A DNA stretch of 64,000 nt from Deferrisomatales bacterium (GCA_033551855.1 JAWSUI010000011.1:20972-84971), one strand, 5' to 3'. Positions 43,589-64,000 are shown, counted from the stretch's first letter. Notes: generated by a model not told the origin, from the letters alone. Program-made: numbers and translations.

Positions 43589-43589
43589 C

Positions 43590-46780: not shown

Positions 46781-46834
46781 ACCTCTGATATCCTCACGCC
46801 GGGCGACGACGAACCTGCCGAGAAAGGAGCACGT

Positions 46835-48896: not shown

Positions 48897-49503
48897 CCTG
48901 TGCACGGCGGTGCTCTTCGCACTGGTGTCCGGGGGGGTGGCCGCCGACATCTACTCGGCCCGGCGGCCGGACGGCTCGGTCTCGTTCACCGACACGCCCA
49001 CCGCCCCCGAGTATTCCGTCGTCATCCGGGAGACTCCGCCGGTCTTGCCCTGGCGCGACGTGGCCGAGAGGGAGGCAGGGCGCCACGGCCTGGATCCCCG
49101 CCTCGTGCGTGCGGTGATCTACGTCGAGTCCGGGGAGAACCCCCGGGCCGTGTCGCCCAAGGGCGCCCAAGGCCTCATGCAGCTCATGCCGGGGACGGCC
49201 GACGAGCTGGGGGTGGGAAACCCCTTCCGGCCCAGGGAGAACATCCAGGGCGGGGTGAGCTACCTGGCTTCCATGCTGCAGCGTTTCGGCGGAGACCTTG
49301 AGCTCGCCCTGGCCGCCTACAACGCCGGGCCGGGCGCCGTGCAGCGCCACGGGGGCATCCCGCCGTACCCCGAAACCCAGCGCTACGTGAAGAAGGTTCT
49401 CGAGGTCTACCGCCGCCAGGGAGGCGAGACGGGGGGCGCCGCGGGGGTTGACACCGGCAACCTCCCCATGGATAATTCGGACCCCACAACCGGGCGGGAA
49501 TAA
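48880..49503 (+). CDS. Lytic transglycosylase (DUF4124-like N-terminus + SLT domain)
   Basis: Signal peptide, DIYSARRPDGSVSFTD, and SLT motifs VIYVESGENP...SPKGAQGLMQLMP.TA...AAYNAGPGAV. The 3' end overlaps the tRNA by 10 nt. Confidence 0.8.
   Translation: MRTAANLCTAVLFALVSGGVAADIYSARRPDGSVSFTDTPTAPEYSVVIRETPPVLPWRDVAEREAGRHGLDPRLVRAVIYVESGENPRAVSPKGAQGLMQLMPGTADELGVGNPFRPRENIQGGVSYLASMLQRFGGDLELALAAYNAGPGAVQRHGGIPPYPETQRYVKKVLEVYRRQGGETGGAAGVDTGNLPMDNSDPTTGRE
49448..49476 (+). promoter_or_regulatory. Sigma-70-type promoter for tRNA-Gly(GCC), embedded in the 3' end of the SLT gene
   Basis: TTGACA (49448-49453), 17-nt spacer, GATAAT (49471-49476). The tRNA 5' end lies 18 nt downstream. Confidence 0.55.
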
Positions 49504-49568
49504 CTCAGTGGTAGAGTGCGACCTTGCCAAGGTCGAAGTCGCGGGTTCGAATCCCGTTTCCCGCTCCA
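49494..49568 (+). tRNA. tRNA-Gly (anticodon GCC), CCA encoded
   Basis: Hand-folded: acceptor GCGGGAA/TTCCCGC, D stem ACTC/GAGT, anticodon stem CGACC/GGTCG with loop TTGCCAA, T stem GCGGG/CCCGT, T loop TTCGAAT. Confidence 0.95.
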
Positions 49569-49593
49569 CGAAATCTCCAGTCCCTACGGGGAC

Positions 49594-50892
49594 TTACAAT
49601 TCGATAGCCCCCATTTTCGGCCGGATGTCACCCCAAATGTCACCCGAGCCGAGCTGGGGGCTCCCGTTTTTCGGGCCTTCGAGGTACTCCTCGATGGCGT
49701 CCACGTCGTCCTCCAGTCCCTCCACGTACCGCCCGTAGACCTCATAGATCATCTGCCGGCTGCCGTGCCCCATGAGGCGGACCACCTTGTCGGGGTGGAC
49801 CCCCCGCATGAGGTTCCACGCGGCGAAGGTGTGCCGGGCGGCATAGGGCTTCCGGTAGGGAAGACCGGAGGCCTGGAAGGCCTTGGCCCAGGGGCCGTTG
49901 CGAAACCGCACGTTGGCCGCATTCGTCTCGATCCAGGGACGGCCATCCTCCCAGGTGATCAGGTGGTCTCCGTGCCGGCGCTCCCTGAGCTCGTCGAGCT
50001 GGCGCCGGAGCGCGGGCGTGACCGGGATCTCCCTCTTCCGGTAGACGGTCTTGCTCCCCTGCACCGTCAGCCGGTCACCCCGGATGTCACCCGAGGTGAG
50101 CCGTCCAAGCTCCGAGGAGATCATCCCCGTCATCACCATCACTTCGCAGATGGGCCGGTAGTGGGGGGCCATGTGCTTCATCAGGGTCTGCCACTCGTGG
50201 ACCCGGAAGGTCTGGGGGTCGCTCTTCGTCCGCTGCGGGATGAGCTGCCCCCGGCGGTTTCGGCGCTTCAGGTGCTCGAAGGGGTTCCGGAGGTCCCAGC
50301 CGTGCTCTTCGACCGCATCCTCCCAGATGATCCGCAGGGGGATGAGGAGGTTCCGGATCCGGCTCGGGGACAGATGGTCGAGCCCCCGCACGAAGTCGAC
50401 CACCTGGACCCCGGTGAGCTCGCCGAAGCTCAGGCCCCCGAACCGGGGAAGGAGGTGCCGGTTGATGATCGACCGATAGTCCCGGCGCTTCGTCGCGCTC
50501 CGCTCAGTGTCCAGGTGAGCCGTGACCCACGTGCCGACGTAGTCGGCGATGATGACGTCCGCCGGGTCAGTCTGGGCGTCCTGATGCTCGTGACCCTCGA
50601 GCCGAGCGAACTTCGCCTTCTCCTGATCCGAAGCCCCGGGAAATGCCTCCTCGAAGCGAAACGTCCCCGCCTGGATGGCCTTGCCGATCTCGGCCAGGAA
50701 CGCGCGGGTCTTCCCGCGGTTCTTCCGGTTGTCCTCGAGCCCAGTAGCGCGTTGCACGACCTCTCCGAAGTACGTGAACCGGATCGAGAGTCGCCCGCCG
50801 CGGGCGATCACGTATCCGAACCGTCGAGGCCTTGGGGTTTTCTCACTCTTCTTCTGTTCTGGAAATGGAATCACCTCTGCCGATGGTTGCAT
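49594..50892 (-). CDS. int: Tyrosine recombinase / integrase
   Basis: 433 aa from ATG 50892. Catalytic-region pattern ...TGMISSELGRL...ARHTFAAW...LMGHGS..M....YGRY (R..H-x-x-R..H..Y). Lies 25 nt from the tRNA 3' end. Confidence 0.9.
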   Translation of the reverse strand: MQPSAEVIPFPEQKKSEKTPRPRRFGYVIARGGRLSIRFTYFGEVVQRATGLEDNRKNRGKTRAFLAEIGKAIQAGTFRFEEAFPGASDQEKAKFARLEGHEHQDAQTDPADVIIADYVGTWVTAHLDTERSATKRRDYRSIINRHLLPRFGGLSFGELTGVQVVDFVRGLDHLSPSRIRNLLIPLRIIWEDAVEEHGWDLRNPFEHLKRRNRRGQLIPQRTKSDPQTFRVHEWQTLMKHMAPHYRPICEVMVMTGMISSELGRLTSGDIRGDRLTVQGSKTVYRKREIPVTPALRRQLDELRERRHGDHLITWEDGRPWIETNAANVRFRNGPWAKAFQASGLPYRKPYAARHTFAAWNLMRGVHPDKVVRLMGHGSRQMIYEVYGRYVEGLEDDVDAIEEYLEGPKNGSPQLGSGDIWGDIRPKMGAIEL

Positions 50893-50965
50893 GTCAGTCT
50901 CCCATGGTGCACCTCCTCTCCATGACTGTGGCCTGAAGGGAGAGTACACGGGGGAAGTGGGGTGC

Positions 50966-51301
50966 TCAAGGGGGCGCCCGGTAGTGCAGGTCCAGGACCG
51001 GTTCCTTGGAGCCGGACTTCTGTGCCTTATGGGGACGTGGCGGAGCAGGTTTCGTCTCCGAGGGCGTTTCCACTTCCGAGACTGCGGCCGTGAGGATCGC
51101 GTCTCGGGCCTGGGGCCAAAGGTAGCGGACGTTCTTGTCCGAGGGGCGGACCTTCGGTCCAGCGCGGGTGGAAGGGATCCAGGTGTAGTCACGTTGCGCC
51201 TGTAGCAAACCGAGCCGACGCCATGCCTTCACGGTGCTGACGCTGACGTCCATGCGCTCCGCGAACCTCGTTTGGGTCAACAGACACTCGGCTTGTGTCA
51301 C
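50966..51301 (-). CDS. xis: Excisionase/AlpA-like helix-turn-helix DNA-binding protein
   Basis: GTG 51301 follows an AAGGAGAAGG SD. LLTQTRFAERMDVSVSTVKAWRRLGLL is a MerR-superfamily excisionase-type HTH. Lies directly upstream of int. Confidence 0.6.
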   Translation of the reverse strand: MTQAECLLTQTRFAERMDVSVSTVKAWRRLGLLQAQRDYTWIPSTRAGPKVRPSDKNVRYLWPQARDAILTAAVSEVETPSETKPAPPRPHKAQKSGSKEPVLDLHYRAPP

Positions 51302-51625
51302 CCGATCACCTTCTCCTTGCGTCTGCTGTATAGGTGGCGGGCGGGGTCATCCTTCTCGATCTCTGGCGGAACACCGCCCCTTCACTTAGGTATTCGCGCG
51401 CCTTGGAACATGAAACCTGGGCTGAGGCACGGGGGACGGAGCGATGTCTACGACCGGAGGTGGCACTGCCAGAAACGGGCCGGTTCTGGGAAGTGATGGT
51501 GTCTCGGCGCAGGCGAAGAGGGGCAGGGATTCGGGAGCTGTTCGCAAGAAAGAGCGCGTCAGCCGGGATGCCCGCGCTTCTGGTGGGAGGGGGGGCGGCT
51601 CTACGGAATCAGGCGCAGAGTAGTC

Positions 51626-52603
51626 TCAGGTGCGATCGATCCCGAACCTTGCCCACAGCGGGTAGTGGTCGGAGACGCGGAAAGAGATGGAGTTCCGGCT
51701 GAGGTTCGCGTCCGTGTAGACGTAGGGCAGAAAGTCGAAGTTTCCGCCGCTGAGGTACTCCATGGACAGGAGGCGCCGACTGCCTTCTTGAAACCACGCG
51801 ACCTGGTCATAGAACTTCCCGGTGTCCGGGTTGCCGGGCTCGGAGAAGATCGTCCGGGGCAGGCTGACCAGGTCCGCCGGGACGTGGAGCCCGGTCGAGG
51901 TGAAGGCCCTCCAGAGGTCGTCGCCGTGGCGGTCGATGTTGAAATCCCCGAGGGTCAAGAGGTTGTGGTGCCAGCGGTTCTCCCGAGCCGCCCACTCGGC
52001 CATCCACCGGGCGATCCCCCGGAGCTCCGGGACGCGGCCGGCCGCGTCCCGCCCATACTCGACGTGGAGGGTGACGAGGATGAAGGTGGCGGCGCCGGTC
52101 TTGAAACTCACCGCGTAGGGCGTTCGGGCGAACTGCCGCCGCAGCGCAGTGGCCTCGATCTCCTTCTCCCACTCGGGGGGAACCACGAGCTCACAGGCAA
52201 GGCCGGAGGGTCTTACACGTTCCAGGTCGAACAAGAAGGCCATCCGTTCGTGGTTTCCCGCCTGGCCCAGGGTCACGTCGGTCATGAGGAAGGCCCAACG
52301 CTCGCCGAGAAGCAGGAGGAGGTCCCGGAGCGCTCTGAGGTCCCCCATGACTTCTTGAAGGGCTACCACGTCGAAGCGGGACACGATCTCCCCGATGGCC
52401 AGGAGCCCGCGGAGGTCGCGTTTGGGGGTGTCGCTCGCCTGCGCAGTCCATTTGCGGGTGAGGGAGCTGAACATGCGAAGGTTCCAGGTGGCGATCAGCA
52501 GGTCCCCAGCGTTCTTGCGCGGGATAAACGTGTCCAGCCCGTTGCGGAGGGCGTCGAGGTCGTTGCGGACGTTCGCAGGCGGGGAGTCGAGGATGGTCGG
52601 CAT
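51626..52603 (-). CDS. Endonuclease/exonuclease/phosphatase (EEP, DNase I-like) family protein, no signal peptide
   Basis: ATWNL (Asn), ALQEV (Glu), TLHVEYG, LGDFNID and SDHYPLWARF (Asp-His) make a full EEP catalytic set. Confidence 0.8.
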   Translation of the reverse strand: MPTILDSPPANVRNDLDALRNGLDTFIPRKNAGDLLIATWNLRMFSSLTRKWTAQASDTPKRDLRGLLAIGEIVSRFDVVALQEVMGDLRALRDLLLLLGERWAFLMTDVTLGQAGNHERMAFLFDLERVRPSGLACELVVPPEWEKEIEATALRRQFARTPYAVSFKTGAATFILVTLHVEYGRDAAGRVPELRGIARWMAEWAARENRWHHNLLTLGDFNIDRHGDDLWRAFTSTGLHVPADLVSLPRTIFSEPGNPDTGKFYDQVAWFQEGSRRLLSMEYLSGGNFDFLPYVYTDANLSRNSISFRVSDHYPLWARFGIDRT

Positions 52604-52684
52604 GCAACGTCTCCCGTCACGGGGTGGCCCCGATGGCAATGGGCTGGCCCAGCGGCTCTCAAGGCGGGGGTCGTGGGGCCTGCC

Positions 52685-53050
52685 TCAGAAGACCGGTAAC
52701 TCCCGGCGTTCGTCCGCCTCCGGGCTGCGGTGGGGCCGGCCGTTGATCAGCACCTCGACAACGTAGTCGTTCGGGTTGCACCCGGCGAGCCGGAACTTCG
52801 AGATGCCGGAGCTCGCGTCCGGGTTGTAGTACACCGCGCGCAAAGGTTCTGGCGGGGTCGGAGTCGCGCCGTCCATGGGGACCAATGCGAGCATCGGGAC
52901 TACGACCAGAGCCCAGAGAAGGGTCGTCCTTGATCTCCTGGGCGGGGGAAGGGGGGGGTCGGGGCGAAGGGGTATTACGTTCTCTCCGGTGGCGCTCCGG
53001 ACGATCTGCCGGACTCTCCGTGCGGTGATGCAACGAACCCTGTCGTCCAT
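52685..53050 (-). CDS. Small single-pass membrane protein (hypothetical)
   Basis: ATG 53050 follows an AAGGGGGAG SD. Central TM helix (TTLLWALVVVPMLALVP). Lies between the XRE and EEP genes. Confidence 0.5.
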   Translation of the reverse strand: MDDRVRCITARRVRQIVRSATGENVIPLRPDPPLPPPRRSRTTLLWALVVVPMLALVPMDGATPTPPEPLRAVYYNPDASSGISKFRLAGCNPNDYVVEVLINGRPHRSPEADERRELPVF

Positions 53051-53077
53051 GGTCTCCCCCTTTGTCCTCCGACGGTC

Positions 53078-53503
53078 TCAGGTTGCCAGTCTGATCATCT
53101 TCGCGATGTGGGCCCGGCCCGGCTGGGTTCCTTCCTCGTGTCCCACCATGTCGTAGAGCAACACCACCAGCTCCGCCTTCTTTTTCGGCTCCAGGGTCAC
53201 CCCCAGCTCGCGGAGTTCCGTCTCCACCCCCTCGATGACGCCCGCCAGCACGGACTCGTCCGGTCCCGCGCGCTCCCCCCGCTCCGCCGGAGGGGGCTCC
53301 CGACCCAGCACGAGCCAGTCGCAGGACACTCCCGCCTCCTCGCTGAGCTTTCCCAGGAAGACCGGATCGGGGAGCTGGCCCCGTTCGATCCTGCCGACGG
53401 TGTCCCGAGAGACCTCGGTGCGTTCTGCCAGCTCCGCCTGACTCCAGCCGAGCCGCTCACGCGTCTCCCGCACTCTTTCGCACACACTCGGTAGCGTCGC
53501 CAT
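53078..53503 (-). CDS. XRE-family (cI-like) HTH transcriptional regulator, probably leaderless
   Basis: VRETRERLGWSQAELAERTEVSRDTVGRIERG is an XRE HTH. ATG 53503 lies 6 nt downstream of a TATACT -10 box. An alternative GTG at 53518 lacks an SD. Confidence 0.8.
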   Translation of the reverse strand: MATLPSVCERVRETRERLGWSQAELAERTEVSRDTVGRIERGQLPDPVFLGKLSEEAGVSCDWLVLGREPPPAERGERAGPDESVLAGVIEGVETELRELGVTLEPKKKAELVVLLYDMVGHEEGTQPGRAHIAKMIRLAT

Positions 53504-53509
53504 GTGCGA

Positions 53510-53537
53510 AGTATACACAGGAAAGGGGAGGTGTCAA
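53510..53537 (-). promoter_or_regulatory. Near-consensus sigma-70 promoter driving the XRE gene (leaderless configuration)
   Basis: On the minus strand: TTGACA (53537-53532), 16-nt spacer, TATACT (53515-53510), then TCGCAC and the ATG. Confidence 0.5.
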
Positions 53538-53722
53538 CCCGTGGTTTAGGCCTCCAGTGGCCTTCCATGGAGGAATCCAGCCAGGACTACGAGGAAGCCG
53601 CGCGTCCGGTCTACGTGTGCGAATCGTGCATTTTCATGGTTGACGAGTGCGAAGTACGCGTGCTATCTGTGTTCATGTCGCACAACACGACGGGGCAGGG
53701 TAGAGCCCGGGAGGGAGACGAT

Positions 53723-54439
53723 ATGGAACCCATGACGGCGAGGCGGGATCAGACAGGGCCCGCCTGCGGGACTCCGCGAGGGCGTGACCGGGGGAGGCAC
53801 GGTCTCCGAGTACGCAGGACGGCCACCGGCGTCTCGTCTCGGGCCTCGCCGGAGGGAGACGGGGTTCCTGACGCCGAGGCGTGGGAGCAGGCGGCGCGGT
53901 GGGTGGAAGAGCACCGGAAGTTGATCGTCCGTTGTGCCGAGCGCTATGCGGCCTACGCACCCTACGATCGGCAGGACTACCTCCAGCAGGCCGTTCTGGC
54001 CGCCTTCCACGCCTGGAAGGACTGCGTTCGCTTGGGGCAACCGGAGCGCTTCACTGCCTTCTGCTTCATCCGCTTCCGCCGGGAGTGCCGGGACGAGCTC
54101 GCCATTCGCCGCGACGCTCCGGCGAGCCTTCGCCCGGAGGACCGGCCCCTGGACCCGTCGGCCGGAGGCCTGGAGGGGAACCGAAGGAACGCGGGCGGAG
54201 AGGAGGTGGCCGAGCGGGAGGCCCTCATCCGGAAGGCCCTGCACTGGATGACCCCGCGCCAGCAGCTCGCCTGGCTCCTCGCCCTCGGCCATCTCGGCCA
54301 TGGCCAAGCGGACCCCAAGGAGATCGCCCGGACCCTCAAGATCAGCCGGCGCGCCGCAGCAGGACTCTTGGCGCGGGGACAGGTCCAAGCGGAAGAGGGC
54401 GTCCGCCGGGAGAAGCAGGCGCTGAAGGCGGCCGGCTGA
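53723..54439 (+). CDS. Sigma-70-family-like protein (region 2 and region 4 HTH)
   Basis: ATG 53723 follows GGGAGGGAGA. LIVRCAERYA....DRQDYLQQAVLAAFHAWKD is region-2-like. MTPRQQLAW.L......ADPKEIARTLKISRRAA is region-4-like. The upstream part of the tracked ORF looks non-coding (AT-rich). Confidence 0.5.
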   Translation: MEPMTARRDQTGPACGTPRGRDRGRHGLRVRRTATGVSSRASPEGDGVPDAEAWEQAARWVEEHRKLIVRCAERYAAYAPYDRQDYLQQAVLAAFHAWKDCVRLGQPERFTAFCFIRFRRECRDELAIRRDAPASLRPEDRPLDPSAGGLEGNRRNAGGEEVAEREALIRKALHWMTPRQQLAWLLALGHLGHGQADPKEIARTLKISRRAAAGLLARGQVQAEEGVRREKQALKAAG

Positions 54440-54539
54440 ACAAGGAAGTCCCGCGAAAGGGCCCGCCGTGTTCCACCGCCGACGAATACCTAAGTGAGGG
54501 CAGAAAGCGAAGCCCGGACAGCCGTAGGAGGAGAGAGCA

Positions 54540-54917
54540 GTGAACGTACGGAGGTGGGGTCTCGTGGCAGGGCTTCTCGCGGCCAGCTTCGCGGAGGCGG
54601 ACGCCATTCGCCAGGAGCGCTACCAGTACGCGAGTGGCCTCGCTCGCTTTCTGGTGAGCGAGCGCTCGTGGGTGGTCCGTGCGGAGCCGATCGCTGCCCA
54701 AGCCCTCCACATCCCAAAGCCCTCGCCGCCACTCCTAGCGGTTCGCATGGGAGGCGCGACGAGGCCTCCCCAGGACGGAGGATCCGGAAGAAGAGCAGAG
54801 GAGGGCCCCGACCGAGCAGCCAGCGAGGACCCCGGGACGAAGGCCCGGTGTCTGGAACCCTTTGGCCAGGACGGAGGCACCCGCCCCTTTGACCCCGTCT
54901 TGGAGGAGTCGCCGTGA
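54540..54917 (+). CDS. Small secreted hypothetical protein
   Basis: GTG 54540 follows AGGAGGAGAG. Signal peptide (WGLVAGLLAASFAEA). GTGA overlap with the dsbC-like gene. Confidence 0.45.
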   Translation: MNVRRWGLVAGLLAASFAEADAIRQERYQYASGLARFLVSERSWVVRAEPIAAQALHIPKPSPPLLAVRMGGATRPPQDGGSGRRAEEGPDRAASEDPGTKARCLEPFGQDGGTRPFDPVLEESP

Positions 54918-55621
54918 GAAGTCCCCTTTGGATCGTCTGCTGTGGTGGGCTGTTCCTGACGAGTCTGTCCACAGGCTGGGCCTTCGCAGAAGGAGACTCC
55001 TCCGACGCGGAGACGGCACTGCGACAGCTCTTTCCCCGGTTCGAGGTCACGGCGGTCCACCCGACCCCGGTGGAAAGCCTGTTCGAGGTTGTGGCCGGCG
55101 AGAACGTCCTCTACTTCGCCGCAGCCACCGGACATCTCCTCTTCGGGGAGCTCTGGTCCAAGGAGGGGGTGAGCCTCACCGCGGCGCGGAAGGAGCGCCT
55201 CCTGGCCGAGAAGGTCGCGCGCCTTCCCCTGGACCGGGCCGTCCGGATCGGCTTCGGCCCCACGGTGGTGATCGAGGTCACCGACCCCGACTGCCCCTTC
55301 TGCCGGATGGGCAGCGACTACCTGAAGACCCGGAGCGACGTCACGCGCTATGTGTTCTTCCACCCCCTGCCGAGCCATCCCCAAGCCCGAGCCAAGACCC
55401 GGTACATCCTGGCCGCCTCCGACCCGGCCGGAGCCTACGCCGAGGTCTTCGCCGGCTGCTACGACGAGGGCTCGCTGCCCGAGTCCCCACCCACGGATCG
55501 ACTGGAGGAGCACCTCCGGCTCGTGGAAGGGCTCGGTGTCCGCGGGACACCGCACTACTGGATCGGCGGCGAGCACGTGGCTGGGGCCGATCTCGACGCC
55601 ATCCGCAACCTGCTGCCGTAG
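54914..55621 (+). CDS. dsbC: DsbC-like thiol:disulfide interchange protein (ICE-encoded)
   Basis: Signal peptide, a dimerisation-like N-domain and a thioredoxin fold with DPDCPFC and ...GV.GTP. Confidence 0.75.
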   Translation: MRSPLWIVCCGGLFLTSLSTGWAFAEGDSSDAETALRQLFPRFEVTAVHPTPVESLFEVVAGENVLYFAAATGHLLFGELWSKEGVSLTAARKERLLAEKVARLPLDRAVRIGFGPTVVIEVTDPDCPFCRMGSDYLKTRSDVTRYVFFHPLPSHPQARAKTRYILAASDPAGAYAEVFAGCYDEGSLPESPPTDRLEEHLRLVEGLGVRGTPHYWIGGEHVAGADLDAIRNLLP

Positions 55622-55648
55622 GCGGCACCCACCTCAGGGGAGAAGAGC

Positions 55649-55966
55649 ATGCGAACCATCTTCCGGAAGCTCCGCGGCAAGACCGGCCTCGTCCTTCTTG
55701 CTGCGACCGCGGCCGTCGCGGCGGCCGGCACGGCCCTGGCCCTGCCGGTCCCGGTGGCCGGCGACCTCGGCTACGACGTCTACACCCTCTTCATGGACAT
55801 CAAGGACGGCCCGGTGGGCTACGCCGGGGCCGGCATCGGCATCGCCGGCGCGGCCTTCCTCGGCTACAAGTCGCAGTGGATCCCGGCCGTCGGCGCCCTT
55901 CTCGGCACCGGCGCCATCGTCAAGGCCGACACCATCGTCCAGAGCCTCGGCGCCCTCATCGGCTGA
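55649..55966 (+). CDS. Conjugative pilin precursor candidate (TraA/TrbC-like)
   Basis: 105 aa: long leader ending ALA-LP, then two Gly/Ala-rich hydrophobic helices. Lies directly upstream of traL and is followed by a terminator-like hairpin. Confidence 0.55.
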   Translation: MRTIFRKLRGKTGLVLLAATAAVAAAGTALALPVPVAGDLGYDVYTLFMDIKDGPVGYAGAGIGIAGAAFLGYKSQWIPAVGALLGTGAIVKADTIVQSLGALIG

Positions 55967-55993
55967 ACCGACGCACGGGCCCTCCCGGCCCTC

Positions 55994-56034
55994 GGGAGGG
56001 GCGCGGCGCCCCAGACGCGTCCCTCCCCCTTTTT
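55994..56034 (+). terminator. Intrinsic-terminator-like hairpin plus T5 after the pilin gene
   Basis: GGGAGGG-G-CGCG...CGCG-T-CCCTCCC followed by CCTTTTT (T-run 56030-56034). Confidence 0.5.
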
Positions 56035-56048
56035 GACGGCAAAGGCAA

Positions 56049-56082
56049 GACCTTGGACATGATGAGACCTTGGACATGATGA
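56049..56082. repeat. Perfect 17-bp tandem direct repeat (GACCTTGGACATGATGA x2)
   Basis: Copies at 56049-56065 and 56066-56082 are identical. They lie in the relatively AT-rich 275-bp pilin-traL spacer. Confidence 0.95.
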
Positions 56083-56240
56083 CAGGATTGGCCGGATGGA
56101 AACCCCAATGGGGCACCTCGGTGGGCTCATGCGGAGAACGGGTGTGCGAAGTCTCCCAACCGAACCTGAGACCTCACACATGAGGAGAATCATCCCGTTC
56201 ATCCTGTAATCCTGTCCAAAAAAGCCGTTCGGAGGTTGCC

Positions 56241-56510
56241 ATGAAGCGCGTGCCCTTTCCCCAGTACCTCTCCCGGCCCATGCAGTTCCTCTGGTGGGAG
56301 AGCGACGAGCTCGCCGTGATCCTCCTCTTCGTGGGGTTGGCCATGATGTTCGAGGGGGTCTTCTGGTTCCTGCCCTTCCTCGGGAGCTACGCCTTCGTGC
56401 GACTCAAGCGCGAGTACCCGAAGGACTTCCTCCGCCACGTCTTCTACTTCCTCGGGCTCACCCGCTTGAAGGGCTACCCGGAGTACTGGGAGCGGGAGTT
56501 CTCGGAATGA
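56241..56510 (+). CDS. traL: Type-F conjugative transfer protein TraL
   Basis: 89 aa. FPQYLSRPMQFLWWESDEL then a TM helix, the TraL-family N-terminal pattern. Confidence 0.75.
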   Translation: MKRVPFPQYLSRPMQFLWWESDELAVILLFVGLAMMFEGVFWFLPFLGSYAFVRLKREYPKDFLRHVFYFLGLTRLKGYPEYWEREFSE

Positions 56511-57127
56511 GGGCCGCGAAGTTCCTCGACGAGAAGAGCAACCTCACCTCACAGAACCGGCTCCTCAAGTTCGCGGTGGTTGCCCTGGTCCTGGCCGAGG
56601 CGGTGCAGGGGGTGGCCACGGTCCGGGCGCTCCGCTACCAGCGGACGATCCTCGTCCCTGCGTCCCTCAACCGCCAAGTCGAGTTCGTGGGGGACCGGGC
56701 GAGCCCGGAGTACGTACGGGAGTTCGCGCGCTACGCCGTGGGCCTCGCCCTCAACGTCACCCCGGCCACCGCAAGCGGGAACTTCGAGGAGCTTCTGACC
56801 CTCTACTCCCCGCGGGCCTATGCCTCCGGCCGGAAGGCGTTCTACGCCATGGCCCGGGACATCGAGGGGGCCAAGGTCTCCGGGGTCTTCTATCCGCTCA
56901 AGATTCGGCCCGAGGAGGCCCAGGGCCGGATCGAGATCGAGGGGCACCGCAAACTCTACACCGACGACCTCCTGGTGGAGAGCGCCCGCAAGACCTACGT
57001 GCTCCGCTACGAGGTCGTGGACGGCCGCTTCCAGGTCCTGGGCCTCGTGGAGAAGGCGCAAGAGGCGGACCTGGAGGCTGCGATCCAGGCTCCGGAACCA
57101 AGCCAGGAAGAGGAGACATCGGAATGA
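56507..57127 (+). CDS. traE: Type-F conjugative transfer protein TraE
   Basis: ATGA overlap with traL. N-terminal TM anchor, then ...RTILVP......F.V.......EY...FA.Y...L.LNVTP...... as in TraE. Confidence 0.75.
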   Translation: MRAAKFLDEKSNLTSQNRLLKFAVVALVLAEAVQGVATVRALRYQRTILVPASLNRQVEFVGDRASPEYVREFARYAVGLALNVTPATASGNFEELLTLYSPRAYASGRKAFYAMARDIEGAKVSGVFYPLKIRPEEAQGRIEIEGHRKLYTDDLLVESARKTYVLRYEVVDGRFQVLGLVEKAQEADLEAAIQAPEPSQEEETSE

Positions 57128-57939
57128 AGCCAGCCACTCCACGGAATGAGCCGCCCCTCCATCCTCTCTGCCTGGCTGCGTGCGCCCTCGCGCTCGTCCT
57201 CGCGACGACAGCGGGCGCTGCGGAAGCGGAATCGCCCCCTGACCCCGACGTCCGGTTCCGGAACGTCGTCGTCCACCCGGAGACCCCGACGGTGGTGGAG
57301 ATGAGCTCCACCGACGTGAACAGGGTCACCTGCTCCGAGCCGATCCAGGACGTCGTCTATTCGGCGGAGAAGGGGGTGAGCGTGCGCTTCCTCGACCGGG
57401 AGGCCTTCGTCAAGTTTCTCGTCCGGAAGAAGGGACCCGAGACCCTCTACGCCACCGACCCCACCGAGCTCTACGTGGTCTGCGGCGGCGCGGTCTACAC
57501 CCTGATCGCCCAGCCCCGGAAGATCCCCCCGCCCCCGATCCGCCTCGCCGCTCCCAAGGGCGACGCGGTGCGGGAGAACCGCGAGCACCTGGGCGGTCTC
57601 CCCCGGGAGGTGAAGCTCGTGACCCTCATCCGGGAGGCCTACACCGGGGAGCTCCCGGAGAGCTACCTGGTCCGGCCGGTGAACCGGACGGTCGCCCTGG
57701 CTCCTGACCTCACCGTGGTGGTTCGCCGCCTCGTGCTCGTGGAGGGGGAGGGGCTTCAGATCAAGGAGCTCCACGTCACCGCGGGGCCTCAAGGGGGCGA
57801 GCGCCGCCTGGCCGAGCACCTCTTCGCCAACCCGGCCCTGGGCCCGGAGAGAAAGGTCGCCGTGGCCATCGAGAAGACGAACCTCCAGCCCGGCGAGACC
57901 ACGCGCGTCCTCGTGGTCGAGCTGGCCCAGGGGAGCTGA
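57124..57939 (+). CDS. traK: Type-F conjugative transfer protein TraK (secretin-like)
   Basis: Signal peptide, ...V.MSSTDVNR..C....I.DV.YS.EKG, and position between traE and traB. Confidence 0.7.
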   Translation: MKPATPRNEPPLHPLCLAACALALVLATTAGAAEAESPPDPDVRFRNVVVHPETPTVVEMSSTDVNRVTCSEPIQDVVYSAEKGVSVRFLDREAFVKFLVRKKGPETLYATDPTELYVVCGGAVYTLIAQPRKIPPPPIRLAAPKGDAVRENREHLGGLPREVKLVTLIREAYTGELPESYLVRPVNRTVALAPDLTVVVRRLVLVEGEGLQIKELHVTAGPQGGERRLAEHLFANPALGPERKVAVAIEKTNLQPGETTRVLVVELAQGS

Positions 57940-57942
57940 ACC

Positions 57943-59160
57943 ATGAACCGCCTCGCCAAGTGGTTCTCCGGCCTCCCGCCGAAGCGAAAGCGCCGGCTGG
58001 TCCTCCTGGGCATCCTCGCCCTCGTGTCCGGCCTCTTCATGCTCGGCTACCGCCCAGACGAGGCGCCTCGGCGCCGGGAGGCCCCGCTGGTCCGGGAGCT
58101 CACCCTGGACGGGCAAAGCCTCGAGAGGGCCAAGTACCTCGACCTCCAGCGTCAGCTCGAAGCGCTCGCCCAGGAGAGAGCCAAGCGGGTAAAGGACGGC
58201 CGGGACCCCAGGGCTTCGGTGCCGGCCGACCAGTCCAGGCGCGAAGCGCCGGCTCGGGAGGTCCCGGCCGAGCCGGAGGCGGGCTCCCTGCGCCTGCCCA
58301 CGGCGGCCGAGATCGCCCCTTTGCCCACACCCGCGCCGGCCCCGGCGCCGGTAGCGCAGCCGACGCCGCCCCCGCCCGCCCCGCCGGGCCGCGCGCCGCT
58401 CCCCCAGCCCTCCATGGAGCCCCTGGAGGAGATCGTCGGCGGGATCGAGGTGGCCTCCAACGGGTTGGCCGCCGCCAAGGGCAAGACCGCTCCCCAGGAG
58501 AAAAAAAAAGACCGCAGGGAGGCCGTCTACCTCCCCCCGTCGTTCATGGAGGCGACGCTTCTCACTGGGCTCGACGCCTCTACCTCTGGGGAAGGTAGGA
58601 AGAGCCCGGAGCCGCTGCTCCTGCGCGTCCAGAAGCCGGCGGTGCTCCCGAACCGCGTCAAGGCGAATCTGCGCGGCTGCTTCGTCATCGCCGAGGCCAC
58701 GGGGTCTCTCGCCAAGGAGCGGGCCATGGTGCGGCTCGTGTCCCTGAGCTGCCTCGACCGGAAGGGGCAGGCCGTGATCGACCAGCCGGTCAAGGGCTTC
58801 GTGGTGGACGTGGACGGCAAGGTCGGCCTCGGGGGGCGCGTCGTCTCCAAGATGGGCGCGGCCACGGCCCGGGCGGTGATCGCCGGGATCTTCGGTGGGG
58901 CCGGCGAGGTGCTCCAATCGGCGAGCACGGCCCAGACCATCTCCCCTCTAGGCGCGACCCAGATCGTGGACAGCGAGAACCTCGTCCGGGCCTCCCTGGG
59001 CGGGGGGCTCTCCGCCGGGGCGAACACCCTTCGGGACTTCTACCTGGAGCTCGCCAAGCAGGCCACCCCGGTGATCGAGGTCGGGGCGGCCAAGGGGGTC
59101 ACCGTGGTGATCAGTGAGGGGGTAGATCTCCTGGTCCGGGACGTGAGCCCGGTCCCCTGA
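57943..59160 (+). CDS. traB: Type-F conjugative transfer protein TraB (VirB10-like)
   Basis: N-terminal TM helix, a coiled-coil, a Pro-rich linker (PTPAPAPAPVAQPTPPPPAPP) and a C-terminal beta-domain (...G.......G.GG.V......). Confidence 0.75.
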   Translation: MNRLAKWFSGLPPKRKRRLVLLGILALVSGLFMLGYRPDEAPRRREAPLVRELTLDGQSLERAKYLDLQRQLEALAQERAKRVKDGRDPRASVPADQSRREAPAREVPAEPEAGSLRLPTAAEIAPLPTPAPAPAPVAQPTPPPPAPPGRAPLPQPSMEPLEEIVGGIEVASNGLAAAKGKTAPQEKKKDRREAVYLPPSFMEATLLTGLDASTSGEGRKSPEPLLLRVQKPAVLPNRVKANLRGCFVIAEATGSLAKERAMVRLVSLSCLDRKGQAVIDQPVKGFVVDVDGKVGLGGRVVSKMGAATARAVIAGIFGGAGEVLQSASTAQTISPLGATQIVDSENLVRASLGGGLSAGANTLRDFYLELAKQATPVIEVGAAKGVTVVISEGVDLLVRDVSPVP

Positions 59161-59178
59161 CGGAGAAAGGATGGGAGC

Positions 59179-59742
59179 GTGAAACAGATCCGATGGACCT
59201 GCGGGCGGCTCCTGAGCGGCGGCCTTGTCAGCGTCTTGTTCCTGGGCGGGTGCGGCGTCGTGAATCCCTACCGGAGCGACTTCAAGTGCCCACCCCTGGA
59301 CGACGGGAAGTGCATCAGCGTCGAAGAGGCCTACGACGAGGCCCTGGGCTTCGGGCGCGATCTGGCTCCCCGCCAAGACTGCTCCAGGGAGGCAAAGGCG
59401 CCGGCCCAGGCCCCCTGCGAGCCGTGCCCCAACTGGCCGGACTGCGGAAACGACTGGTGCGAGGAGGCGGCCGGGGGCACCCCAGCGCCCTGCAAGGGCG
59501 CCCCGGCGCCTCCTCCGCCTACCCCCTCGGAGGAGTACCAGGGAGCCCTCTACCGCCGCCTGGCCGGCCTGGTGCAGGAGCCGCGCACGCCTCTGGTGGC
59601 TCCTCCCGAGGTCCTGCGGGTCTGGCTCCTCCCCTACGAGGGGGAGGGAGGAGAGCTCTTCATGGAGCGCTACGTATACGTGATGGTCCAGAAGCCCCGC
59701 TGGGTGCTCGGCACCTACCTCACGGAGCAGGAGGACAAGTGA
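59179..59742 (+). CDS. traV: Type-F conjugative transfer lipoprotein TraV
   Basis: Lipobox FLGGC, paired Cys (FKCP...GKC) and C-terminal ...LRVWLLPYE...G.L....YVYV....P.W. Confidence 0.7.
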   Translation: MKQIRWTCGRLLSGGLVSVLFLGGCGVVNPYRSDFKCPPLDDGKCISVEEAYDEALGFGRDLAPRQDCSREAKAPAQAPCEPCPNWPDCGNDWCEEAAGGTPAPCKGAPAPPPPTPSEEYQGALYRRLAGLVQEPRTPLVAPPEVLRVWLLPYEGEGGELFMERYVYVMVQKPRWVLGTYLTEQEDK

Positions 59743-62246
59743 TGCTGTCGGCTCTCCGGTCCTTCGGACAACGGGTGCGGGACGCCTCGGAGCAGGGCCT
59801 GCGGTTCTCGGACCTCCTCCGGGCCGCCGACCGCCACCCCTTCTCGGTCTACCTCCCGTGGCTCGCCTACGACGGGGAGACCGACACCTACGTCCTCCAG
59901 GACGGCACGGTGGGGGCCCTGTGGGAGTGCCACCCGCTCGCTTTCGCCTCGGCCCAGACCGCCAACGGCCTCGACGGGCTCTTCCGTCTCGGGCTTCCCG
60001 ACGGGGCCGCGCTCCAGTTCGTGCTCCACGCCGACTCGCACCTGGAAGGGCACCTGGCTTCGTATCAGAGCTTGAAAACCCGGGATGATCCCACCGTGGC
60101 GGCCTGCGTGGAGGAGTTTACGGCGTTCCTCCGGGAGGGCACCGCGGGCATCCCCAAGCTCTCCGGCATCCCGGTCCGGGACTTCCGGCTCTTCGTGATT
60201 CTCAAGGTCCCCATGGACAAGACCTCGCCGCTTCGCTGGGAGGATCTGCGGGCGAGCACCGAGGAGATCCTCCAGGGGGCGTCCCTCTGGCCCCGGAGCG
60301 TCGGGCCCGAGGCGCTCCTGGCCTGGGCGCGGCGGCTCTTCAACGACGACGCGGGCGGGAACGCCGCCCACTACGACGCGGAGCGCGCGATCCGCGACCA
60401 GGTGATCTACGCCGAGACCGGGGTCTGGGACGAGGGCCGGCACCTCGCCATCGGGGAGAACCACTGGGCCTGCCTCACCCCCAAGGCCAACCCCAAGGAG
60501 GTGGACCTCTTCAGCACGAACCAGCTCGCCGGAGGGGTGTGGGGCCTCGTGAGCGACGCGGACCAGATCCAGACCCCGTTCCTCCTGTCCCTGAACTTGA
60601 TCTTCGAGAGCCTGGCTCCACGGCTCCACGCCAAGTGCAACCTGGTCCTGGGCCAGGGCGCTGCGGGGAGCTTCGCCCCGAGCCTCGCGCGGAAGAAGGA
60701 GGAGTACCTGCGCGCCGTGGACTCCCTCGAGCGCGGCGCGGTCTTCGTCCGGGCGCTCCCCACCCTCTGGGTCTGGGGGAGGGACAAGCAGCTCGTGGCC
60801 GAGGCTTTCACCCGCGCGAAGCGCATCTGGGAGAACTCGGGCTACGTCATGCAGCAGGACCGGGGGATCCTGAAGGTCCTCTTCCTCCTCTCGCTCCCCT
60901 TCGGGCTCTACCTCCAGGGGAAGAACCTCGAGAACATCGCCCGGGACGCGATCGTGGACTCCGAGGCGGCCACCGCCATCCTCCCGGTCCAGGCCGACTT
61001 CGCCGGCGGCGGCAAGCCCGCGCTTCTCTTCGTCGGCCGCAAGGGCCAGCTCGCGACGCTGGACTTCTTCGACGCCAGGGCCAACAACCACAACTTCCTG
61101 ATTGCCGCCGAGAGCGGCTCGGGGAAGAGCTTCCTCACGAACTACGTGGCCTACAACTACTGGGCCAACGAGGCCATGGTCCGGGTGGTGGACATCGGCG
61201 GGAGCTACAAGAAGCTCGCCCGGATCACGAACGGCCGCTACATCGACTTCGGCGAAGCGGGAGCGGGAGGGAAGGCCCTCTGCCTCAACCCCTTCACCCA
61301 CATCGTGGAGCCCGAGCACGAGCTCCAGGTGGTGGACGCGGTGGTGGCCCAGATGATCTACAGCCGCTCGGGGGCCCGGCCCTCGGAGACCGAGAGCTCG
61401 CTCATCCGCTCCGCGGTCCAGTGGGCCTGGGCCCAGGAGGAGAACGAGGCCGACGTCGACGCGATCTACCACTTCCTCGCGCACCTGAAGGACGTGCCCG
61501 GCTTGGACGACGCCCCCATGCTCAAGCACCCGAAGATCGTCGAGCAGGCCGGGATGCTCTCCTTCAACCTGCGGGAGTTCACGAGCCAGGGGACCTTCGG
61601 GCGCTACTTCAACGGGCGAAGCACCTTCGACATCCGCTCGGACGAGTTCGTGGTCCTGGAGCTCGAGCACTTGAAGGGCCAGACCTCCCTCTTCCGGGTC
61701 GTGACGCTTCTGGTGATCAACGCCGTGACCCAGGACCTCTACCTCTCCGACCGCTCCCGGGAGCGGTTCGTGATGTTCGACGAGGCCTGGCAGTTCCTGG
61801 AGCACGAGGCCGACACGCTCACCCAGGTGATCAACGAGGGCTACCGCCGGGCCCGGAAGTACCAGGGGTCCTTCGGCATCATCGTGCAGTCGATCGAGGA
61901 CCTGGCCCAGTTCGGCAAGGTGGGCCAGGTGATCCTCAACAACAGCTCCTTCAAGCTCTTCCTCCAGTCCTCGGGGTTCCACAAGGCGAAGCAGAAGGGC
62001 CTCGTGGACTACGAGGACTTCACCATGCGCATCCTCCAGAGCCTCGCCTCGAAGAAGGGGGACTACTCGGAGATCTTCGCCGACACACCCTTCGGGGTGG
62101 GGGTCCTGCGTCTCGTGGTGGACCCCTTCTTCTACGGGGTCTGCACCTCCAACGGGAAGGAGAACGCCGCGATCGAGCGCGCAGTGGCCCGGGGGATGAC
62201 CTACGCGGAGGCGATCCGCCACATGCTGGAGCAGCGGGATGCGTAG
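59742..62246 (+). CDS. traC: Type-F conjugative transfer ATPase TraC (VirB4 family)
   Basis: 834 aa from ATG 59742 (overlaps the traV stop). Walker A AESGSGKSF, Walker B VMFDEAWQFL. The N-terminal region matches the TraC layout. Confidence 0.9.
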   Translation: MLSALRSFGQRVRDASEQGLRFSDLLRAADRHPFSVYLPWLAYDGETDTYVLQDGTVGALWECHPLAFASAQTANGLDGLFRLGLPDGAALQFVLHADSHLEGHLASYQSLKTRDDPTVAACVEEFTAFLREGTAGIPKLSGIPVRDFRLFVILKVPMDKTSPLRWEDLRASTEEILQGASLWPRSVGPEALLAWARRLFNDDAGGNAAHYDAERAIRDQVIYAETGVWDEGRHLAIGENHWACLTPKANPKEVDLFSTNQLAGGVWGLVSDADQIQTPFLLSLNLIFESLAPRLHAKCNLVLGQGAAGSFAPSLARKKEEYLRAVDSLERGAVFVRALPTLWVWGRDKQLVAEAFTRAKRIWENSGYVMQQDRGILKVLFLLSLPFGLYLQGKNLENIARDAIVDSEAATAILPVQADFAGGGKPALLFVGRKGQLATLDFFDARANNHNFLIAAESGSGKSFLTNYVAYNYWANEAMVRVVDIGGSYKKLARITNGRYIDFGEAGAGGKALCLNPFTHIVEPEHELQVVDAVVAQMIYSRSGARPSETESSLIRSAVQWAWAQEENEADVDAIYHFLAHLKDVPGLDDAPMLKHPKIVEQAGMLSFNLREFTSQGTFGRYFNGRSTFDIRSDEFVVLELEHLKGQTSLFRVVTLLVINAVTQDLYLSDRSRERFVMFDEAWQFLEHEADTLTQVINEGYRRARKYQGSFGIIVQSIEDLAQFGKVGQVILNNSSFKLFLQSSGFHKAKQKGLVDYEDFTMRILQSLASKKGDYSEIFADTPFGVGVLRLVVDPFFYGVCTSNGKENAAIERAVARGMTYAEAIRHMLEQRDA

Positions 62247-64000
62247 CGTGAGCAGCAAGGCCGCCACCGCCGCGCTCCTCCTGACCGGGTTCTTCGCGGG
62301 GAGCGCTCTCGCGGGGGAAGCCGAGGACGCGGCGAGCGCCGCCTACGGGCAGGTCCACTCCGCCTATGGGCAGAAGGACGCCTTCCGCCAAAGCGCGACG
62401 CTCCCCCTGACCTCGGACGGGACACCGATGGAGACCCTGGATGGCGAGACCTCGTTCCCCGCCCAGCTCCGTGCCCCGTCGAGCGACGCCTACCTCACGG
62501 TCCTCGCCCAGCCCGGCGGGACCGGAGACCTCCAGGTGGTCCGGATCGGCCAGGACACGGACCTGGACGGGACTCCGGACTACGCCTTCACCGTGCCCTT
62601 CCGGGTCTCCGGAGTCTGCGCCAACGGAGTGATCGGCTGCGAGCCGGGGACCTGGTCGAACTGCCGCTTCCACGAGTGGGTGGCCGACGCCTCGGGGCGG
62701 GTGAGCCTCCGCGAGGTGCCAGCCTCGTCCCTCGGGGGCTGCTACTGCATCAACGACGACTGCGGCTCGAACCTCGTCTGGACGAACCTCGCCCTGGTTC
62801 TCCGGGACCTGGGGGGCGGCGCCGTGGGCGCGGCCCAGGCGGCCCGGCCCGACTTCTCCGTCTCCGAGGTCCGGGTGGACCCTCCGACCGTCACCTACTA
62901 CGGCCAGAAGGTGGGCGCCGCGGCGCCCGGCCCGGCCACCGCCGTCACCCAGCAGCGCTACTACCGGGACGCCCTCGGCCTGGAGGCCGACGCCCGGGCC
63001 GAGCTCCTGGCCCAGGGGGGGGACCCGGGGAGCCTCTACTCCCTCACCCTCGGCGCCATGACCCGCGCGGGCACCGGGGCGAGCCGCTCGACGTGCACGG
63101 TGGAGCGAAGCGTCACCCTGGAGGAGGTGACCCTGGCCGACATCCTGGAGGACCGGGGCGGGACCGAGGGGTCCTTCACCCCCTCGATCGACCCTGTGAC
63201 TGGGCAGCCCTACGTCCGCTGGGTCCTCGGGCGGTACACGTCCTCCAGCTGGATGCCGAACAACAGCATCGTAGACCAGATCCGGGAGGTCTACATCGCC
63301 CGGCCCGAGCGCATCACGAGGGCCGTCCTCACCGAGGTCCGCTCCGACGACACGACGCTGGTGGTCCTCGGGGGCACCGTGGTCTACGGGCAACCCTGGA
63401 TGTGCGGCTACGACGGCACGGGCTGCAGCCTCTCGGCCGGAAACCTCCTCACCTACCCGGACCTCGACCTCACGGCTCACTTTCGGAGCCCGGGCCTCCT
63501 GGAGGGGAACGCCCGGGTCTTCGTCGGAAGGAACGGCGAGGGCTACGCGGTGATCCGGATCGAGGTCGAGGAGAGCTGCGAGCCGAGGGAGGCCGTCGCC
63601 AACGGCTGCGCCGGCTTCGAGGCGGACCCGGCCTGTACCCTCGGAGGGGAGACGGTGGATGGGGTCGTCACCGTCCGGAACGGGACCCCCACCGGCCTCG
63701 TCCCGCTGGGGGAGACCCGAACGATCACCGGGGGGAACTGCGTCCTGGACGTCACACCGGCCTGGTGGCGGAAGGAACGGTCCTACCTCTGTGCCGACGC
63801 GGCCGCCTTCGACTTCGCGGACGCAAAGGAGCGGCTGGGGGCGATCGACGCCAGCGTGGCCTTCGGGGCGGGAACGCTCACCTACACGGACCGGAGACGC
63901 GACGCCTCCGGCGCGTGGGTGGTCGAGGACGGCGCGATCGAGGTCGGCCTCACCCCGGCCCCGGGCGAGTGCGAGCGCGCCTGCAAGACCCGCCGGCGGC
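62239..64000 (+). CDS. Cys-rich secreted protein, TraN-like (mating-pair stabilisation); 3' end outside the window
   Basis: Not in the supplied ORF track because no stop occurs. I translated phase 1 by hand from ATG 62239 to 64000 (587 codons, no stop). Signal peptide MRSVSSKAATAALLLTGFFAGSALA. Many Cys pairs (GVCANGVIGC, GGCYCINDDCG, CAGFEADPAC, WWRKERSYLC). Confidence 0.6.
   Translation, partial: MRSVSSKAATAALLLTGFFAGSALAGEAEDAASAAYGQVHSAYGQKDAFRQSATLPLTSDGTPMETLDGETSFPAQLRAPSSDAYLTVLAQPGGTGDLQVVRIGQDTDLDGTPDYAFTVPFRVSGVCANGVIGCEPGTWSNCRFHEWVADASGRVSLREVPASSLGGCYCINDDCGSNLVWTNLALVLRDLGGGAVGAAQAARPDFSVSEVRVDPPTVTYYGQKVGAAAPGPATAVTQQRYYRDALGLEADARAELLAQGGDPGSLYSLTLGAMTRAGTGASRSTCTVERSVTLEEVTLADILEDRGGTEGSFTPSIDPVTGQPYVRWVLGRYTSSSWMPNNSIVDQIREVYIARPERITRAVLTEVRSDDTTLVVLGGTVVYGQPWMCGYDGTGCSLSAGNLLTYPDLDLTAHFRSPGLLEGNARVFVGRNGEGYAVIRIEVEESCEPREAVANGCAGFEADPACTLGGETVDGVVTVRNGTPTGLVPLGETRTITGGNCVLDVTPAWWRKERSYLCADAAAFDFADAKERLGAIDASVAFGAGTLTYTDRRRDASGAWVVEDGAIEVGLTPAPGECERACKTRRR

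Follow-up and report, generated by a model that had tools for sequence, protein, structure and literature searches.

Integrative and conjugative elements (ICEs) of the SXT/R391 group carry a type IV secretion system (T4SS) of the F-type mating-pair formation class (MPF-F), hold dsbC inside the transfer cluster, and integrate into prfC. In SXT, the repressor SetR holds off the FlhDC-like activator SetCD, which turns on the int/xis and tra operons together; the transfer genes run traLEKBV-traA and then dsbC-traC, and TraN is one long protein. Here we analyze a stretch of 64,000 nucleotides (nt) from a Deferrisomatales bacterium (GCA_033551855.1, JAWSUI010000011.1:20972-84971), which is referred to at its full length as the window. 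With fairly high confidence, we read positions 49574 to at least 64000 as the left-hand portion of an ICE that carries an MPF-F system and is integrated at tRNA-Gly(GCC) in an uncultured member of the Deferrisomatales. An original prediction had described an element only partly visible at this tRNA; the ICE reading is supported, and it is the left part, about 14.4 kb, that can be seen. We know of no described mobile element from Deferrisomatales, an iron-reducing lineage of high guanine-plus-cytosine (GC) content, and a full-text literature search gave no match pairing Deferrisoma with conjugative.

Pam100G of Protochlamydia amoebophila UWE25 is a chromosomal F-like tra island located by gly-tRNA genes and bounded by short direct repeats (PMC548262). 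The TraN classes of IncF, IncA/C, and IncH plasmids have been described by the lengths of single proteins (PMC13104618; PMC9246713).

The window has a GC content of about 70%, and such high GC fills plain lists of open reading frames (ORFs) with spurious frames; genes were called by third-position GC and the called genes were tested against Pfam and NCBIfam. The host response-regulator gene by the tRNA is 100% identical to MDW7710081.1, from a Deferrisomatales metagenome-assembled genome (MAG). The transfer proteins match NCBI entries MDW7710089-MDW7710095 exactly, and MDW7710081-MDW7710095 all lie on one 87,111-bp contig. The Prokaryotic Genome Annotation Pipeline (PGAP) names TraL, TraE, TraK, TraB, TraV, and TraC in this record and leaves the pilin candidate as a hypothetical protein.

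The left boundary at tRNA-Gly(GCC)

The features at the junction are as follows (aa, amino acids).

49448-49476: sigma-70-like promoter of tRNA-Gly, TTGACA-N17-GATAAT
49494-49568, + strand: tRNA-Gly(GCC), the integration target, whose 3′ end is the left junction (attL side); ARAGORN, Rfam tRNA 71 bits
49569-49573, no strand: left insertion boundary; the match to L096 stops after 49573 in a three-way alignment
49594-50889, - strand: tyrosine integrase, 431 aa, with arm-binding and catalytic domains; Arm-DNA-bind_2 PF12167 4e-14, Phage_integrase PF00589 5e-9

The stop codon of the integrase lies 25 nt past the 3′ end of the tRNA on the opposite strand, and ARAGORN and Pfam agree with the placement of a tyrosine integrase within 25 nt of the tRNA that had been claimed. 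Two relatives allow the locus to be compared. L096 (GCA_047921355.1) is a second MAG of the same species as the host of the window; by megablast it is 99.8% identical to the window across 12,012 nt (37562-49573) and shows no similarity further on. L085, which is less closely related (75% protein identity in the flanking gene), has a flank of the same order as that of the window, namely HAD, SEC-C, response regulator, SLT, and tRNA-Gly. The 1.6 kb of contig that L085 has past the tRNA contain lipoprotein-like genes and no integrase. The tRNA itself is the same at 75 of 75 nt in both relatives. Identity with L096 breaks 5 nt past the tRNA and L085 has no integrase in that stretch; therefore, the DNA from 49574 on was inserted and is specific to this strain. 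This places the left end of the element within 5 nt of the tRNA end. A comparison with relatives at this locus had been proposed as a check, and both L096 and L085 support insertion at tRNA-Gly(GCC).

Past its tRNA, L096 carries another integrase of the same family (L096 12013-13600), which shares 48% aa identity with that of the window and is 61% identical to the integrase of L086, a contig that carries the same tra family as the window. More than one related integrase type therefore uses the tRNA-Gly(GCC) site within the host species, and the 3′ end of this tRNA is an integration hot spot for at least two of them. The sequence whose direct repeat would mark the right end of the element (attR) is GTTCGAATCCCGTTTCCCGCTCCA. 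A second copy of the 31-mer at the 3′ end of the tRNA is absent from the window, with up to three mismatches allowed, in line with the earlier statement that no right-hand att site lies there.

The Rfam scan returned the tRNA as its one match and nothing else. A lytic transglycosylase (SLT) gene 5′ of tRNA-Gly(GCC) overlaps the first 10 nt of the tRNA (window 49494-49503), and this overlap is taken as native to the host because L085 is arranged likewise. Elsewhere in the window, a tRNA-Gly(CCC) at 15116-15191 is followed by a gene for an HU-like DNA-binding protein, with no integrase adjoining.

The transfer operon and the two-gene TraN

The inserted DNA holds the following transfer genes and associated features.

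54540-54917, + strand: 125-aa protein with a hydrophobic signal-peptide-like N-terminus (by eye); no family match, dN/dS 0.39-0.56
54914-55621, + strand: DsbC-family periplasmic disulfide isomerase; DsbC_N 7e-13, Thioredoxin_2 1e-6
55649-55966, + strand: pilin candidate, 105 aa, with a leader ending ALA and then two hydrophobic helices; directly before traL
55994-56034, + strand: terminator-like GC-rich hairpin and T-run directly 3′ of the pilin gene; 12-bp stem then UUUUU, z = -2.4
56241-56510, + strand: TraL; PF07178 2e-12, TIGR02762 33 bits, over the cut-off
56507-57127, + strand: TraE; PF05309 7e-48
57124-57939, + strand: TraK, secretin-like core component; TraK_N 1.5e-15, TraK_C 7e-19
57943-59160, + strand: TraB, VirB10 family; PF03743 3e-31, NF010289 F-type TraB 1.7e-47
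59179-59742, + strand: TraV lipoprotein; PF09676 2e-26, TIGR02747 over the cut-off
59742-62246, + strand: TraC, F-type VirB4-family ATPase, 834 aa, MDW7710095.1; PF11130 TraC_F_IV 3.9e-78, TIGR02746 TraC-F-type 1.4e-145
62239 to beyond 64000, + strand: N-terminal piece of TraN, cysteine-rich, hydrophobic and signal-peptide-like at its N-terminus; the window ends at its residue 587 (of about 665)

The MPF-F core genes traL, traE, traK, traB, and traV stand in order, and all five exceed the Pfam gathering score. Together with TraC, whose TIGR02746 score of 486 bits lies below the equivalog cut-off of 567, these family matches support the F-type (MPF-F) T4SS of the original prediction. The genes had also been described as a tightly overlapped string, which holds for most of them but not for the 274-nt gap between the pilin gene and traL. 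Among the ORFs of the element scanned with Pfam and NCBIfam (49.6-64 kb), no relaxase or type IV coupling protein (T4CP) domains were found, as had been claimed for the window.

The same tra block occurs at 88-91% nt identity in three other assemblies, L001, L086, and L087. Every element gene has a dN/dS between 0.06 (TraC) and 0.56 against these relatives, a range that leaves out the 28-residue dsbC remnant in L086, where dsbC is deleted. No element gene is frameshifted, and the proposal that frameshifted tra genes might reveal a fixed remnant is rejected for the visible part. Together these data indicate that the visible genes are intact and under purifying selection. TraC homologues of 49-55% identity in named organisms come from Desulfobulbaceae, Manganitrophus (Nitrospirota), and unclassified Deltaproteobacteria or Proteobacteria MAGs.

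Relatives also show what follows downstream: TraN-C, TraW, TraU, and TrbC are seen, with TraW and TraU in L001 and L087 and TrbC in L002. In L004, a T4CP gene, a primase, and a weak match to Replic_Relax (a relaxase family) stand beside the tra genes, and TraF, TraH, and TraG come after. Beyond the window would accordingly be expected the C-terminal piece of TraN, TraW, TraU, TrbC, TraF, TraH, TraG, a coupling protein, a relaxase with the origin of transfer (oriT), and attR, because close relatives show the first few of these genes and more distant ones the rest. This copy is likely to be self-transmissible, given the T4CP, primase, and weak Replic_Relax match that L004 carries beside its tra genes.

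Several points weigh against the ICE reading. The relaxase, coupling protein, oriT, and attR are not visible within the window, and the contigs of the close relatives (>85% nt identity; L001, L086, and L087) end in TraN or TraU; a metagenome scan with TraU found short or distant contigs only. The pilin candidate itself is without a Pfam, NCBIfam, or PDB match, and its single-sequence AlphaFold2 (AF2) model (pLDDT 52) is too poor for a structure search. The same absences would fit a T4SS-bearing island that is no longer self-transmissible, for want of a relaxase, coupling protein, or right end, and that persists as a fixed remnant or depends on help. Nothing past TraN is visible in the window, the closest plasmid relatives, pPRO1 of Pelobacter propionicus and the plasmid of Desulfosarcina sp. 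BuS5, are typed as non-mobilizable by MOB-suite (the tra set of BuS5 being reduced), and dsbC has been lost in L086. We nevertheless regard this as unlikely, since the visible genes are all intact and under purifying selection and near-identical tra blocks are found in differing cargo and integrase contexts. Moreover, the tRNA site is filled differently in two MAGs of the same species, which argues for recent movement.

A role other than conjugation, whether to release DNA like the gonococcal genetic island or to export proteins, seems extremely improbable for the F-type system. It would agree with the lack of DNA-processing genes in view, but conjugative F-type systems typically have a pilin gene and the mating-pair-stabilisation protein TraN, the same genes in relatives are accompanied by genes for a T4CP, a primase, and a relaxase-family protein, and a plasmid with this layout has been typed as conjugative and MOBF.

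Within the ICE as read here, the 105-aa gene is a well-placed candidate for the pilin, to which its position, size, leader, and two hydrophobic helices would fit. It is the best-conserved gene in the comparison with L002, with 91% aa identity over the mature part (70% for TraC). Weak matches to TrbC/VirB2 (PF04956) appear in four of six positional orthologues (best E 0.038), and the candidate has no match to the TraA family (PF05513). The hairpin that follows looks like a partial terminator, and its sequence is kept in L001, L086, and L087, that is, in four elements with the window. Such a hairpin would hold the pilin in excess over the machinery. In L001, an apparent DsbC-pilin fusion (348-aa product, 5200-6246) was discarded as a frameshift in the Logan assembly, the TAG stop being conserved in the DNA. 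At the position of the 125-aa gene, the more distant relatives L003, L004, and pPRO1 carry an OmpA-family gene.

Between the pilin terminator and traL lies an insert of about 190 nt (56036-56226, GC 0.58-0.60) that only the window and L001 carry; L086 and L087 lack it. Within the insert, the 17-mer AGACCTTGGACATGATG stands as a perfect tandem repeat (two copies, 56048-56081), and a fourth copy of GTGCGAAGT lies at 56144. The fold of the insert is no better than that of shuffled sequence (z = -1.8).

The last gene of the window had been called TraN-like. It has no Pfam, NCBIfam, or PDB sequence match, and a scan of GTDB species-representative genomes with the TraN-N fragment found no close relative. 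Its homologues in relatives are 657-681 aa long and are followed in L001, L002, and L087 by a second gene of 357-366 aa, which matches the TraN Pfam model (PF06986) in its C-terminal half only. By profile comparison, the last gene is a homologue of TraN over about the first 600 residues of that protein, which bears out the label. In hhalign, its family profile aligns with the single-chain 800-aa TraN of L004 over residues 28-617 (probability 100, E 2e-93), and the second gene aligns to residues 616-795 of the same protein. An end-to-end alignment of the family is obtained with the first of the two TraN proteins of the Salmonella plasmid pSA20053897.2 (E 1e-78), and a match with the 658-aa hypothetical protein before traN in pPRO1 (3e-102). 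On the long TraN model NF011458, the first TraN of the Salmonella plasmid corresponds to 226-380 and the C-terminal piece of L001 to 771-867.

The last gene is thus the N-terminal portion of a TraN divided between two neighbouring genes, an old and widespread arrangement in this MPF-F branch for which the annotation of a RefSeq plasmid already gives two TraN genes. Added together, the pieces come to about 1,020-1,040 aa (about 665 and 357-366), with about 190 aa of additional cysteine-rich sequence in the C-terminal one. DsbC may fold these cysteine-rich pieces. Two other interpretations were rejected. A new protein unrelated to TraN is ruled out by the profile comparison, and a pseudogene split by the conservation of the split at 39%-88% identity with a dN/dS of about 0.25; a pseudogene is also countered by the hydrophobic signal-peptide-like N-terminus on each piece.

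Short contigs of the same MAG hold another set of pilin, TraL, TraK, TraB, TraV, and TraC genes, closely related to the first (MDW7712520/21 on 7,086 bp; MDW7712558-62 on 5,997 bp). It represents either two related elements in one genome or a strain mixture, and coexisting related copies probably explain the assembly breaks inside the tra region.

The XRE/sigma node, a shared promoter-like motif, and exchangeable cargo

Between the integrase and the transfer operon, and in related contigs, the following features were recorded (HTH, helix-turn-helix).

50966-51301, - strand: small HTH protein, candidate excisionase (recombination directionality factor); MerR-type HTH E 5e-4, under the Pfam cut-off
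51382-51410, - strand: copy of the promoter-like motif, about 80 nt 5′ of the xis-like start codon
51626-52603, - strand: endonuclease/exonuclease/phosphatase-family protein, cargo or accessory; PF03372 7e-10
52685-53050, - strand: conserved 121-aa protein, downstream of XRE in the same operon; no family match (Pfam, NCBIfam, PADLOC)
53078-53503, - strand: XRE-family HTH repressor candidate, 141 aa; HTH_3 2.5e-13, Phage_CI_repr 8.5e-5
53537-53510, - strand: XRE promoter TTGACA-N16-TATACT
53504-53680, no strand: divergent control region, GC 0.57, with three GTGCGAA(G/T) repeats at 53504, 53617, and 53647
53640-53669: sigma-70-like promoter TTGACG-N18-TATCTG facing the sigma gene
53681-54439, + strand: divergent sigma-70-family protein with a sigma2 and sigma4 core; TIGR02937 3.9e-10, below the cut-off
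54469-54497, + strand: copy of the promoter-like motif, 42 nt 5′ of the first gene of the tra operon
Relatives: motif copies at L086 5534-5562 and about 2450-2480 (- strand), L087 about 4950-4980, and L002 2455-2483

The divergent XRE/sigma regulatory node of the original prediction is upheld by the HTH_3 match of the first protein and, for the second, by homologues and structure comparison. The sigma-like protein has 10 homologues among 5.8 billion proteins, all of them in these elements and with the NCBI name sigma-70 family. At the sequence level, its top PDB matches are FliA and a further sigma factor. A Foldseek search with its AF2 model, in which structured regions have a pLDDT of 70-83, gave sigma factors for all of the 50 best PDB matches. 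PGAP puts the start of the gene at 53903 (178 aa). The XRE protein has no further Pfam domain, peptidase S24 included, at E<=0.01. The three GTGCGAA(G/T) repeats, probably operators, fall in a stretch of 150 nt: the first overlap is with the XRE start codon and -10 element, and the spacer of the sigma-gene promoter contains a further repeat. At the position equivalent to the sigma-gene promoter, L001 has TTGACC-N17-TATGCT.

A 29-nt promoter-like motif, TGTTCCA-N5-G-N-CGAATACCTAAGTGA (in shorter notation, TGTTCCA-N14-CTAAGTGA), occurs twice in 64 kb, with 0 copies expected. The two copies flank the XRE/sigma pair, each in sense orientation for its own operon (xis-int or tra). Written as TGTTCC-N16-TAAGTG, the motif has the geometry of a promoter and no sigma-70 consensus. 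It is kept before the tra operon in L086, L087, and L002, with an N15 version in L001, and it also precedes the xis gene of L086, although the integrase of that element differs. Because the motif precedes both operons and recurs in related elements, these data suggest that the element's own sigma factor couples excision to transfer.

As a tentative proposal, which we hold to be possible but rather doubtful, a highly divergent sigma-70-family factor encoded by these ICEs themselves would switch the family on through TGTTCC-N16-TAAGTG, under repression by XRE; a lesser part of the same proposal is that TraN is made as two separately secreted polypeptides. As the most economical model of the regulation, in two steps, the XRE repressor would keep the divergent sigma-gene promoter shut. 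Once repression is lifted, the sigma factor would guide RNA polymerase to the motif before the xis-int and tra operons, so that excision and the assembly of pilus and T4SS could be turned on together. A number of points speak against it. The sigma matches lie under curated cut-offs, and the mean pLDDT of the model is only 60. The motif resembles neither the extracytoplasmic-function (ECF) nor the sigma-28 consensus and could be the binding site of another regulator. The link from sigma factor to promoter is one that we infer from co-occurrence, position, and conservation, and the assignment of the excisionase is sub-threshold.

The small HTH gene lies directly 5′ of int in the same operon, with a 100-aa gene in the equivalent place in L086. 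It had been labelled excisionase-like; the gene is indeed there, whereas the label draws on position and a sub-threshold MerR-type match, which together make an excisionase plausible. The nuclease-family gene is kept in L086 (85% aa identity, dN/dS 0.16), and other genes take its stead in L001 and L087. Neither the nuclease nor the small ORFs matched a defence system in PADLOC. The 121-aa gene is conserved in L001, L086, and L087, with a dN/dS of about 0.4. Left of XRE, L086 has the same nuclease and 121-aa gene with a different integrase, and dsbC is cleanly deleted from its tra block. The cargo of L087 consists of MerR, MerC, and a thioredoxin (mercury resistance; 1817-3020), and that of L001 of a nucleotidyltransferase pair, NTP_transf_8/DUF6788 (1799-2750). 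L086 at about 5500-6000 is a region of cargo difference among near-identical transfer cores. The element family is therefore modular: its regulatory and transfer core stays the same, and integrases and cargo can be exchanged.

This exchange of the integrase and cargo segment among relatives, next to a constant stretch from XRE to tra, could also point to a small integrase island (int, xis, and nuclease) beside an unrelated T4SS module. Alternatively, the MAG contig might be a chimera of host and plasmid DNA, given that assemblies of this family break repeatedly and that a second related tra set lies on short contigs of the same MAG. Either case is very unlikely: xis-int and tra share one promoter-like motif on their 5′ side, in L086 as well as in the window, the 14.5 kb contain no plasmid replication or partition genes, and L086, an independent assembly from JGI, keeps the order int, xis, nuclease, orf121, XRE, sigma, and tra.

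AT-richer patches had been noted at about 51.3-51.6, 53.5-53.7, and 56.0-56.25 kb. They are real but mild, with GC of 0.57-0.615 at 51.2-51.5, 53.5-53.7, and 56.0-56.3 kb and about 0.68-0.72 nearby, and they coincide with intergenic regulatory DNA. Outside the element, the window holds a haem biosynthesis-like cluster at 22107-27009, recognized by eye from translations alone, with hemC-like, uroporphyrinogen methyltransferase/synthase fusion, and hemE-like genes (by-eye labels). A radical-SAM AhbD-like gene (also a by-eye label; 24650-25735) has lower first-position GC.

Comparison with known systems

The gene order had been taken for a mixture of F-like and SXT/R391-like layouts. This does not hold; the order is instead the standard one of an existing MPF-F branch, which runs (OmpA), DsbC, pilin, TraL-E-K-B-V, TraC, TraN-N, TraN-C, (TraW), TraU, TrbC, S26 peptidase, TraF, and TraH. 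The layout is found in pPRO1, in the Salmonella plasmid pSA20053897.2, on chromosomes of Desulfolithobacter and other Thermodesulfobacteriota, and in many Thermodesulfobacteriota contigs. The order DsbC, pilin, TraL-E-K-B-V, TraC, and two-gene TraN recurs in L001, L002, L003, and L087. The nearest TraC proteins of annotated plasmids share 44-46% aa identity with that of the window (Desulfosarcina, Geobacter, and Pelobacter).

P. propionicus pPRO1 (NC_008607.1) resembles the window in its order of OmpA, DsbC, a 106-aa hypothetical protein at the pilin position, and TraL, E, K, B, V, and C, and it continues with the 658-aa protein, TraN, TraU, TrbC, and an S26 peptidase. Unlike the element of the window, pPRO1 and its counterparts in Geobacter anodireducens and Desulfosarcina sp. 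BuS5 are plasmids without a tyrosine integrase or tRNA junction, and the stretches of them that were examined hold no XRE/sigma module. The layout of Salmonella enterica pSA20053897.2 (NZ_CP029997.1; MOBF, MPF_F, typed as conjugative) is likewise that of the window, with DsbC, a small gene at the pilin position, TraL, E, K, B, V, C, two TraN genes, TraU, TrbC, an S26 peptidase, TraF, and TraH. It differs in its enterobacterial plasmid replicon, its regulation, and its TraC, which is only 35% identical to that of the window. Enterobacter cloacae plasmids give TraC matches similar to those of pSA20053897.2. The IncF transfer region stands further apart: the window element has no TraA family (PF05513) match, is chromosomal, and has a TraC of about 35% identity to enterobacterial ones. 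Pam100G differs in its unrelated host and sequence, its size (a 100-kb island), and its many transposases, and its integrase and regulatory content is not comparable. With regard to TraN, the length classes are described for one protein each; here, two adjacent genes match the N-terminal to middle and the C-terminal parts of long TraN models.

With this element, a familiar class of mobile DNA gains a new and rather unremarkable member. An F-type branch common to Desulfobulbaceae, the Geobacter group, Pelobacter, and even enterobacterial plasmids circulates here as tRNA-Gly-targeting islands with swappable integrases and cargo, a nuclease in the window and mercury-resistance genes in a relative. 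The points that go beyond routine are the pairing of sigma factor and promoter and the two-gene TraN, and the general picture of ICEs is unchanged.

No SXT-specific feature was found in the element of the window. The SXT/R391 elements are nonetheless like it in being ICEs with an MPF-F system and dsbC in the cluster, and their repressor-activator logic is similar to the model proposed here. The window element differs from them in its target, tRNA-Gly, in its activator candidate, a sigma-70-family protein, and in the location of dsbC and the pilin gene before traL. If the proposal is true, this ICE family would run a sigma-factor version of the SetR/SetCD logic of SXT.

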